This document shows positions 57,496-57,619 of a stretch of DNA of 64,000 nt, piece by piece. Below the pieces are notes generated by a model that was given only the letters and a program-made list of their open reading frames with translations, was not told the origin of the DNA and did not search any database. Both the position numbers and the translations under genes were made by a program. Each line of letters starts with the position of its first letter. Within the stretch, counting starts at the first letter, position 1. This DNA is from a virus, in IMG/VR virus record IMGVR_UViG_3300013901_000011, positions 28,923 to 92,922 of that record, one strand, 5' to 3'.

Positions 57496-57619
57496 TGCCC
57501 AGAGAAGGACTTGAACCTTCACTCTAATAATAGAAACAGATTTACGTCGCTAAATTGCGGTATAAGTAATTTACAAAACTTTTTGCTGATTCTGTCGCGT
57601 CTACTTCCGCCACCTGGGC
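57496..57619 (-). tRNA. tRNA-Leu (CAG)-like gene with ~43-nt insertion in anticodon loop (putative intron)
   Basis: GCCCAGG-TG-GCG..CGC-G-ACAGA-ATCAG, 43 nt, then TCTGT, 15-nt variable arm, T-arm GAAGGTTCAAGTCCTTC, acceptor TCTGGGC; total 124 nt. Confidence 0.4.

Follow-up and report, generated by a model that had tools for sequence, protein, structure and literature searches.

The window analysed here is a 64,000-nucleotide (nt) stretch of the virus record IMGVR_UViG_3300013901_000011 from IMG/VR (positions 28,923 to 92,922 of that record), and the element in question is an interrupted class II transfer RNA (tRNA) gene at positions 57619-57496 on its minus strand, hereafter called the candidate. 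Positions are those of the window unless a contig is named. The presence of an interrupted class II tRNA locus was confirmed. With introns allowed, ARAGORN called c[57496,57619] with a 43-nt intron and, for the window allele, anticodon CUA, in agreement with the initial annotation of an insertion-containing tRNA with 43 inserted nucleotides at 57496-57619. The features of the locus, with exon limits that assume a cut between tRNA nucleotides 34 and 35 (written 34/35, and other cuts likewise), are as follows:

57496..57619, minus strand: whole interrupted class II tRNA gene, 124 nt, or 81 nt minus the insert (ARAGORN, introns allowed)
57588..57619, minus strand: exon 1, assuming the 34/35 cut (sequence and pair counts)
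57613-57619, minus strand: exon 1 acceptor 5' strand, GCCCAGG
57597-57610, minus strand: exon 1 D arm, 3-base-pair (bp) stem GCG/CGC
57591-57595, minus strand: exon 1 anticodon-stem 5' strand, ACAGA
57588-57590, minus strand: exon 1 loop nucleotides A32 U33 C34
57545..57587, minus strand: intervening sequence, 43 nt, AGCAAAAAGUUUUGUAAAUUACUUAUACCGCAAUUUAGCGACG (ARAGORN intron call, with inferred boundaries)
57573..57586, minus strand: predicted insert hairpin 1, (G.U) C-G A-U A-U A-U with loop AAGU (RNAfold)
57542..57565, minus strand: predicted insert hairpin 2, UUAU/GUAA plus CGC/GCG with loop AAUUUA (RNAfold)
57496..57544, minus strand: exon 2, invariant in all alleles except G71A
57541-57544, minus strand: exon 2 loop nucleotides U35 A36 A37 A38
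57536-57540, minus strand: exon 2 anticodon-stem 3' strand, UCUGU
57521-57535, minus strand: exon 2 variable arm, 15 nt, UUCUAUUAUUAGAGU
57504-57520, minus strand: exon 2 T arm, GAAGG UUCAAGU CCUUC
57497-57503, minus strand: exon 2 acceptor 3' strand, UCUGGGC
57496, minus strand: exon 2 discriminator A

The anatomy proposed initially, in which the acceptor and D arm are followed by an ACAGA strand that pairs with TCTGT 50 nt downstream, was borne out on the minus strand, and the 15-nt variable arm and T arm of a type II tRNA with an interrupted anticodon loop were all present. The acceptor stem GCCCAGG/UCUGGGC was found to contain seven pairs, one of them G.U, and the distance of 50 nt between the two anticodon-stem strands is exactly a 7-nt loop plus 43 nt. 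The locus thus shows a 7-bp acceptor stem, a D arm, a 5-bp anticodon stem, a T arm with a UUCAAGU-type loop and a discriminator base, and the CCA end is not encoded. All candidate versions spliced in silico were called by ARAGORN as ordinary 81-nt tRNAs, and pairing was kept in 99.5% of the cells over six candidate alleles.

The default ARAGORN run did not call the candidate locus, and Rfam RF00005 gave 19.2 bits on the genomic locus compared to a gathering cut-off of 29 bits, in a partial, wrong-register alignment; this model must absorb both the long variable arm and the 43-nt insert. The initial annotation had made its claim depend on a tRNA model scoring the locus, and ARAGORN with the intron option did so, though Rfam remained below cut-off. 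In 100 dinucleotide-preserving shuffles of the 64-kb window, there was one intron-type ARAGORN call and none with an insert of at least 30 nt, indicating that three such loci in one window are not due to chance.

Conservation of the candidate and its sister genes

The allele set was obtained by exact-word scans of IMG/VR and metagenome contigs, supplemented with contigs encoding identical window proteins. At least 18 loci in related gut-phage contigs from independent samples were found to carry six candidate alleles, and the insert was present in all of them, with a length of 43 nt in the window and 41-42 nt in the other alleles. No insert-free candidate allele was found in IMG/VR, the metagenome contigs or the GTDB genomes, where two matches to an insert-free candidate were due to chance in GC-rich DNA. 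There was no decayed copy among the 18 or more loci, and no copy of the insert elsewhere in IMG/VR.

When the window was compared with its IMG/VR relatives, the exons diverged by 3.7% overall (0 of 49 positions in exon 2 and 3 of 32 in exon 1), compared to 11% for the insert, approximately threefold the exon rate, and 10-19% for the flanks. The 257-nt upstream spacer and the neighbouring tRNA-Ile diverged by 14% and 19%, respectively. The only exon 1 changes among the alleles were C2U (paired with G71A), G7A (which pairs with U66), A27G (which pairs with U43) and U33G. C2U and G71A form a double compensatory change, seen in one allele, that arose with the insert already present, and all stem substitutions in the six alleles keep pairing, with no broken pair. 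Covariation statistics are weak with only six close alleles, the observed score being reached by 79 of 500 shuffles. Neither the broken stems nor the flank-like divergence of a pseudogene were found. The pattern of substitutions suggests that the candidate locus is a constrained RNA and not a decaying one, which agrees with the earlier view that it is not a lone pseudogene.

The interruption was also proposed to be recurrent, on the strength of two loci at 50.9-51.4 kb. Both are real interrupted tRNA genes, and with the candidate and a tRNA-Pro gene they bring the number in the window to four. The three sister genes are:

50920..51049, minus strand: tRNA-Gln(UUG) with a 57-nt insert at 50960-51016 (Rfam 46.5 bits, above cut-off)
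51302..51439, minus strand: tRNA-Asn(GUU) with a 65-nt tRNA-like insert, at 51341-51405 if the cut is 34/35 (ARAGORN)
48048..48934, minus strand: tRNA-Pro(UGG) with an insert of approximately 817 nt, split at 35/36 or 36/37 (alignment to the insert-free gene of contig L001)

Contig L001 carries the same tRNA-Gln without the insert (loop CUUUGAC) between almost identical flanks, and this places the junction uniquely between U34 and U35. In contig L021, the tRNA-Asp gene contains a 77-nt insert that is missing from the Asp gene of the window, and its position is again uniquely 34/35; the anticodon stem in L021 has U-A where the insert-free allele has C-G, and its pairing is good. The Gln insert consists of a 7-bp stem, a T-arm-like hairpin and a 2-nt tail UA, and the Asp insert of a 7-bp stem and an AU tail, so that both have a 7-bp stem from the first insert nucleotide and then a 2-nt 3' tail. 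The Asn insert, which was found in L001 and L002 as well, fits 34/35 or 35/36 and scores 36.2 bits as a tRNA by itself. In the unrelated phages L184 (approximately positions 8290-8440) and L187, tRNA-like inserts of approximately 64 nt occur at the same site of tRNA-Asn(GUU). A tRNA-Asn(GUU) with a long insert, maybe a group I intron, was also observed in L182, an unrelated phage contig.

The Pro interruption surfaced by comparison with L001, having been reported neither in the initial annotation nor by the default tools, and its spliced form was called tRNA-Pro. This insert is nearly all PD-(D/E)XK endonuclease open reading frame (ORF) (48100-48870; Pfam PDDEXK_5), with approximately 35 and 18 nt outside the ORF. 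It gave no Rfam match and no group I signal, and leaves no room for a ribozyme. The interrupted Pro anticodon stem is better than that of the insert-free copy in L001.

These findings show that the sister inserts are discrete units with presence/absence polymorphism, for Gln between the window and L001 and for Asp between L021 and the window. The inserts share no sequence with one another, and the comparison for shared motifs that had been proposed gave nothing in common among the candidate, Gln and Asn inserts. Endonuclease genes lie in or beside tRNA genes throughout the array, among them a GIY-YIG ORF at 54605-55372, and loss of such genes may have left the short inserts as remnants, by analogy with mobile introns and their usual life cycle. 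At positions 11842-12800 of L002, a tRNA-Gln 5' half ends inside the anticodon loop; an HNH endonuclease ORF comes next, and beyond it lies a complete tRNA-Gln(UUG) that differs from the first, an arrangement that looks like an endonuclease-driven cassette replacement.

Structure of the insert and choice of the anticodon

The insert gave no match to the group I intron family (Rfam RF00028) at the gathering threshold or at E values up to 10, and no match to any Rfam family. At 43 nt, compared to a group I core (P3-P9) of approximately 200 nt or more, it is too short for a ribozyme of either group I or group II and cannot splice itself. Inspection of the folds showed that the 4-bp central helix of a bulge-helix-bulge cannot form at the proven Gln junction or at any candidate junction. 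Neither a tRNA-like module nor a T-arm-like hairpin was detected in the candidate insert with Rfam and RNAfold. In hairpin 1 of the predicted fold, the C-to-U change of the other allele type retains the pair as U.G; in hairpin 2, C61U retains pairing and two other changes fall in the loop. The 3' strand of hairpin 2 extends into exon 2 and pairs with its first bases, which places the 3' cut site of a 34/35 junction inside a helix. A terminal stem GC(U)AAA/UUUAGC was rejected as the fold of the insert, because it is bulged or mismatched in three of the six alleles whereas the two-hairpin fold suits all substitutions.

Since the exons behave as a working gene and the insert cannot remove itself, protein-dependent splicing is the simplest account, and the candidate is probably a functional interrupted tRNA. 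The full reading that we put forward, a live class II gene that would undergo protein-dependent splicing to an 81-nt CUA amber suppressor, is offered tentatively, as plausible but far from assured.

Two types of 5' junction were found. The window, L033 and L040-L043 read RCAGA AUCAGCAAAAAG, and all other loci, referred to as the commoner allele, read GCAGA AGCUAAAAAG with no CAG; the 3' junction GCGACG UAAA UCUGU is invariant in all loci. Assuming that one contiguous block is removed and a 7-nt loop is left, the commoner allele, with UAAA at both junctions, would give the loop AGCUAAA and anticodon CUA for cuts keeping three to seven 5' loop nucleotides, and GUA for cuts keeping one or two. 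In the window allele, the outcome would be CUA (AUC joined to UAAA) for 34/35, GUA for 33/34 or 32/33, CAA for 35/36 and CAG for 36/37 or later. CUA and GUA are therefore the only anticodons reachable in both allele types, CAG being possible only in the window allele, and the 34/35 cut yields CUA alone in both. The predicted spliced junctions are ...GACAGAAUC joined to UAAAUCUGU for CUA, ...AGAAU joined to GUAAAUC and ...AGAA joined to CGUAAAUC for GUA, and ...AAUCAG joined to AAUCUG for CAG. A 34/35 cut is compatible with the Gln, Asp and Asn inserts, and 33/34 is excluded for all three. Because the sister inserts fit 34/35 and exclude 33/34, and because only CUA and GUA are common to both alleles, CUA is favoured. 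From these junction comparisons it is most likely that the mature candidate would read UAG, as an amber suppressor with anticodon CUA, rather than a leucine codon. In the initial anticodon call, CAG is to be replaced by CUA; GUA is the main alternative, and CAG is the least likely of the three. A further ARAGORN call, Phe(AAA) for the commoner allele with an intron after nucleotide 38, was rejected because it needs 3 nt between the D and anticodon stems and a shifted anticodon stem.

The leucine part of the earlier Leu (CAG) assignment holds for the 5' half of the candidate, which best matches phage tRNA-Leu genes, but not for the 3' half, which best matches tRNA-Tyr(GUA), and this disagreement makes any assignment of the amino acid tentative. 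Leu-type and Tyr-type CUA tRNAs are the classical Escherichia coli amber suppressors (supP and supF). In the distant relative L003 (a 180-kb contig), an insert-free class II tRNA with anticodon CUA was found at positions 1900-1988, together with a 586-codon ORF at 18867-20627 containing six in-frame TAG codons, indicating that suppression exists in the wider clade, part of which probably reads TAG as sense. Positional orthology of the candidate with the CUA tRNA of L003 was rejected, as gene order differs. L003 also contains a gene resembling transfer-messenger RNA at positions 208-507.

RNA-repair genes and proposed maturation

The window has a GC content of 34% and genes almost all on the minus strand. 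It includes a replication module with DnaB, gyrase A and B and NAD-dependent DNA ligase, and the replication genes of the phage are SPbeta-like. Identical window genes occur on 182-184 kb human gut metagenome contigs, indicating a genome of approximately 183 kb, and no close relative was found among GenBank phages. In ERZ26858454, the phage contig is covered approximately 1500x. The genes and ORFs that may bear on the maturation of the candidate are:

26179..27561, minus strand: RNA ligase, candidate sealing enzyme (phrog_968 'RNA ligase', E 4.9e-64, full length)
22787-23320, minus strand: P-loop kinase (Pfam AAA_33, E 1e-18; NCBIfam bacterial Pnkp kinase region, E 6e-8, below cut-off)
22258-22824, minus strand: metallophosphoesterase-like ORF overlapping the kinase (weak Metallophos/PdeM match)
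23659..24339, minus strand: ApaH / lambda-phosphatase-like phosphoesterase (weak NCBIfam matches, E 3e-8)
56021..56362, minus strand: cREC_REC-domain ORF, 1.1 kb downstream of the candidate (Pfam PF20274 on the identical gene in L040-L043)
18524..19771, minus strand: PIN + PhoH (PhoH2-type) protein (Pfam PIN_4 and PhoH; NCBIfam PhoH2, E 1e-26, below cut-off)
57877..57953, minus strand: tRNA-Ile(UAU), 257 nt upstream of the candidate (ARAGORN, Rfam 69.6 bits)

The RNA ligase also gave weak matches to Pfam RNA_ligase, to TIGR02306 (DRB0094 type) and, in the Protein Data Bank (PDB), to T4 Rnl2 and Naegleria Rnl. The kinase and the phosphoesterase overlapping it (22258..23320) are, judged by these domain matches, a candidate end-healing pair, and the window holds three metallophosphoesterase-like ORFs in all. 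The PIN-PhoH2 protein is a candidate RNA endonuclease/helicase. No Hen1 and no T4 Rnl1-type ligase were recognised in the scans of window ORFs, and PDB sequence searches with four ORFs of no assigned function gave no nuclease. For the cREC domain class, a role in clearing RNA ends that carry a cyclic phosphate has been proposed, and the usual interpretation of RNA-repair gene sets is that they counter the anticodon nucleases of the host (PMC7824862). The proposed splicing intermediate, a tRNA broken in its anticodon loop, is the same substrate on which such RNA-repair enzymes act.

From the sequence we infer splicing itself, the cutting nuclease, the exact junction, the anticodon and the amino acid, and the following steps are proposed on that footing. 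The gene would be transcribed, probably together with tRNA-Ile(UAU), and its outer ends would be matured as in any tRNA without an encoded CCA. One or more protein nucleases would then excise the insert in such a way that the 5' half keeps three loop nucleotides and the 3' half keeps four, a split judged from the sister inserts. The halves would be held together by the cloverleaf and rejoined by the phage RNA ligase, after repair of the ends by the kinase and phosphoesterases if these were a cyclic phosphate and a 5'-OH. The product would be an 81-nt tRNA with loop A-U-C-U-A-A-A and anticodon CUA, with a 5' half resembling tRNA-Leu and a 3' half resembling tRNA-Tyr.

Three kinds of nuclease can be envisaged. 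A "ruler" enzyme measuring from the anticodon stem would agree with the 3 + 4 rule and with inserts that have no sequence in common; RNase P together with a 3' endonuclease could act on the tRNA-like inserts; and a staggered cut of RNase III type would fit the 2-nt tails of the Gln and Asp inserts. No single one of them explains every insert. The wider proposal, that the phage runs a protein-based tRNA splicing system in which 34/35 inserts would be excised from several tRNAs and the halves sealed by phage RNA-repair enzymes, is more doubtful than the reading of the candidate itself and is put forward as a speculation.

The candidate and tRNA-Ile(UAU) are probably co-transcribed. No convincing promoter or terminator was found between them, and the 660-nt non-coding stretch that holds both is conserved throughout in relatives. 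The GGAGG ribosome-binding site of the next ORF (57285-57488) begins 3 nt past the candidate. Two non-coding stretches on the minus strand, 57954-58160 upstream of tRNA-Ile(UAU) and 51050-51240 upstream of tRNA-Gln, have a GC content of 40-47% compared to 34% for the genome. Both are kept in relatives, and they gave no Rfam match, mutual similarity or significant fold z-score. Shared motifs upstream of tRNA-Gln and the candidate (CCTGGCT..AACCG and TTCTAGG) were rejected, since the local alignments were no better than those of shuffles and the fold z-scores were not significant.

The tRNA array extends from 38.7 to 58.0 kb and contains 21 ordinary tRNA genes, including two Tyr(GUA) genes and Leu(UAG); no Leu(CAG) was called by default. 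A promoter-like motif, TTGATTTTTTATAAAAAATAATATATAATA, was observed at approximately 13 sites between 38657 and 56682 on the minus strand, ahead of many genes and tRNA clusters, with one copy between tRNA-Asn and the tRNA-Gln leader (51253-51294). The tRNA at 41521-41594 (minus strand) was called Phe with the unusual anticodon AAA (loop CUAAAAA). An exact 76-nt repeat occurs at 45631-45706 and at 54522-54597, the latter copy directly downstream of the GIY-YIG ORF 54605-55372. On the minus strand it has a CAU anticodon stem-loop and a T arm and no matching acceptor 5' strand. At the equivalent place L001 has a normal, unrelated tRNA-Met(CAU), and the window is without a recognisable Met tRNA. 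In this phage group (L044/L045, 15736-20812), GIY-YIG endonuclease genes interrupt the DNA polymerase III alpha gene, one in some genomes and two in others.

By the tRNA array, positions 18524-38637 form an island of RNA-repair and RNA-protein genes, which also encodes an SPFH/flotillin protein, a DEDD exonuclease, a macro/PARG-like protein (TIGR02452), two YqeY-like proteins, a protein with a Major Vault Protein (MVP) shoulder domain (32767-35238) and a DUF2828/DUF7788 protein (37069-38637).

Alternative explanations and relation to known systems

Several observations weigh against the CUA suppressor reading. The D loop, GAAGUAGA, has no GG dinucleotide, and with it the G18G19 invariant is missing. 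The commoner allele has G at the would-be position 33 compared to the near-universal U33. Variation within the candidate locus is greatest at the 5' junction, and the variable bases there could belong to the insert, which would give the loop ACGUAAA with anticodon GUA and C33. A terminal stem of the Gln/Asp type, flush with the 5' cut and followed by a 2-nt tail, is not present in the candidate insert unless the cut is at 32/33. No in-frame TAG recoding was detected in the window, L040, L044, L049 and L204, a survey that reached approximately 50 kb beyond the window and covered approximately 115 kb of the approximately 183 kb, and a suppressor would thus have no obvious client gene there; TAG terminates 8 of the 60 window ORFs. 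A lone in-frame TAG junction between a GIY-YIG ORF at 7300-8289 and an ORF at 6997-7293 was rejected, as it looks like two separate genes. No splicing endonuclease, of the EndA/Sen family or other, was found in approximately 40 window ORFs scanned with Pfam, PHROGs and NCBIfam, and the RNA ligase resembles nick-sealing enzymes of the Rnl2/Rnl5 type, not T4 Rnl1.

A disabled gene is the strongest alternative, although in our judgement an unlikely one. The insert would then be a scar or filler from homing-endonuclease traffic that is never removed, in a young pseudogene tolerated since phage tRNAs are dispensable. G33 in the commoner allele, the variable 5' junction and the D loop without GG speak for this view, as do the chimeric-looking halves, Leu-like and then Tyr-like, and the failure to find a nuclease in the scanned ORFs or any TAG recoding in the approximately 115 kb surveyed. 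The endonuclease genes in and by tRNA genes (the Pro PD-(D/E)XK ORF, the GIY-YIG ORF at 54605-55372 and the L002 Gln/HNH arrangement) would supply the traffic. In contrast, a disabled gene does not account for exons that are far better conserved than insert and flanks, or for stem changes that preserve pairing, including a double compensatory change postdating the insertion. The insert is, moreover, fixed over many samples with no decayed copy found, and four independent inserts each leave a perfect cloverleaf.

Splicing at 32/33 or 33/34, which would give a third tRNA-Tyr with anticodon GUA, is considered improbable. Its attraction lies in the geometry of the commoner allele, where the insert would be a 6-bp stem GCUAAA/UUUAGC flush with the 5' cut plus a GA tail, as in the Gln insert (7-bp stem + UA) and the Asp insert (7-bp stem + AU), resembling a staggered product of RNase III type or that of RNase P and a 3' endonuclease. 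With the 32/33 cut, the junction variation would all fall inside the insert and the mature loop would be identical across alleles, and GUAAAUCUGU plus the remaining 3' half best match phage tRNA-Tyr(GUA) genes. However, such a tRNA requires C33, or G33 with the 33/34 cut, and 33/34 is the cut that the Gln, Asp and Asn inserts exclude. The terminal stem is bulged or mismatched in three of the six alleles, whereas the two-hairpin fold suits all substitutions, and the array already holds two Tyr(GUA) genes.

Also improbable is a functional unspliced RNA with an enlarged anticodon arm that does not decode and might serve as a decoy for host anticodon nucleases or as an RNA partner of the Ro/vault-like proteins encoded nearby. 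G33 and the odd D loop would be irrelevant to such a molecule, the insert substitutions are compatible with the two insert hairpins, and MVP-shoulder and DUF2828/DUF7788 proteins are encoded in the window, where RNA-repair genes are also numerous. Nevertheless, the insert evolves approximately threefold faster than the exons, no Y-RNA or other Rfam match was obtained, and the sister inserts are dispensable, as insert-free alleles in near-identical genomes show, and share no sequence with that of the candidate. A tRNA-Leu(CAG) with an intron at or after 36/37, as in archaeal and eukaryotic tRNA introns, is very improbable: the loop of the window allele starts AUCAG, the 5' half resembles tRNA-Leu, no Leu(CAG) gene is present in the window and Lak phage introns lie at about 36/37 to 37/38, but the commoner allele has no CAG and gives CUA with the same cut positions, the sister inserts of this phage lineage are at 34/35, the Leu(UAG) of the array already reads CUN codons, and position 37 would be C if the cut were 37/38.

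The closest parallel to the candidate is found in the Lak megaphages, whose 'enigmatic' tRNA introns belong to no Rfam family and are often tRNA-like, and for which no mechanism was given when they were described (Devoto et al. 2019, PMC6784885); a 2026 survey found similar inserts in most alternative-code jumbo phages (PMC13037316). In Lak as in the present phage, short, non-ribozyme inserts without an Rfam match occupy the anticodon loop of tRNA genes in gut-metagenome phages and are conserved across genomes; some are tRNA-like (here the Asn and Gln inserts), and presence/absence polymorphism occurs between close genomes. The Lak introns differ in being 79-114 nt long and in lying at about 36/37 to 37/38, with a shared layout of 5' hairpin, A-rich spacer and tRNA-like module, whereas the candidate insert has 41-43 nt, no tRNA-like module and a probable 34/35 position. 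The candidate phage, with approximately 183 kb, 34% GC, SPbeta-like replication genes and no recoding seen, is unrelated to Lak. The candidate is thus a variant of the Lak-type phage tRNA intron, in a different lineage, shorter, without the tRNA-like module, probably located at 34/35 and with an anticodon that is probably that of a suppressor. Our literature searches found no paper explaining phage tRNA introns.

Protein-dependent tRNA splicing is attributed to archaea and eukaryotes, and bacteria and their viruses are regarded as lacking it. The introns that are removed there by EndA or TSEN, followed by RtcB or Trl1, are likewise short anticodon-loop inserts that do not splice themselves, and a comparable sequence of cutting, healing and sealing is proposed here. 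In contrast, the candidate has no bulge-helix-bulge, its sisters are split at 34/35 and not 37/38, the setting is bacterial, and no EndA-family domain was seen in the scanned window ORFs. T4 Pnkp and Rnl1 can replace yeast tRNA ligase in splicing, which indicates that phage repair enzymes are competent for the sealing step. The kit of ligase, Pnkp-like kinase and metallophosphoesterase is also shared with T4 Pnkp + Rnl1 acting against PrrC and with bacterial Pnkp/Hen1, as is the geometry of the substrate, a tRNA broken in the anticodon loop and held by its body. Those systems mend damage by host nucleases, whereas the break in the candidate would be programmed by the gene.

The cyanobacterial tRNA-Leu(UAA) group I intron lies in the anticodon loop between nucleotides 34 and 35, and tRNA group I introns share with the present inserts an association with homing endonucleases and presence/absence polymorphism. 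However, the candidate insert at 43 nt, and its sisters at 57-77 nt, are several times too small for a ribozyme core, and the usual group I rule of a 5'-exon U and a terminal G is broken by the G at the end of the Asp 5' exon and by the A at the end of the Gln insert. Bacterial 23S ribosomal RNA (rRNA) intervening sequences are excised by RNase III, and the rRNA fragments are not religated. They too are hairpin inserts in a stable RNA, and the Gln and Asp inserts show an RNase III-like 2-nt 3' overhang. A tRNA cut in the anticodon loop, in contrast, must be religated, and the candidate fits this geometry only with a 32/33 cut. The suppressor tRNAs of recoded gut phages (Borges/Peters et al.) also come from low-GC gut phages with a tRNA array, and CUA is the likely anticodon of the candidate as well. 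The candidate differs from them in that its body is Leu/Tyr-like and not Gln-like, its gene is interrupted, and the approximately 115 kb surveyed have no in-frame TAG. The preprint describing those suppressors (bioRxiv 10.1101/2021.08.26.457843) proposes that phages acquire suppressors before becoming recoded.

This phage lineage provides a compact system for the study of mechanism, with four interrupted tRNA genes within 10 kb and an adjoining set of RNA-repair genes. Insert-free alleles in near-identical genomes fix two junctions to the nucleotide, at 34/35, and the Pro insert with its endonuclease gene suggests how inserts spread and then shrink. Default tRNA annotation misses interrupted genes, and phage tRNA sets, suppressors included, are consequently under-counted. 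Anticodon nucleases of the colicin E5 and zymocin types cleave the tRNAs for Asn, Asp and Gln at 34/35; if the proposed splicing is true, the repaired junction could sit at the very bond that nucleases of these types hit, and the phage tRNAs would be pre-immunised. Splicing would also gate the amber suppressor, which would be active only once the repair enzymes have been made, and if maturation of the suppressor does depend on splicing, the timing of stop-codon readthrough in infection would be controlled in a new way.

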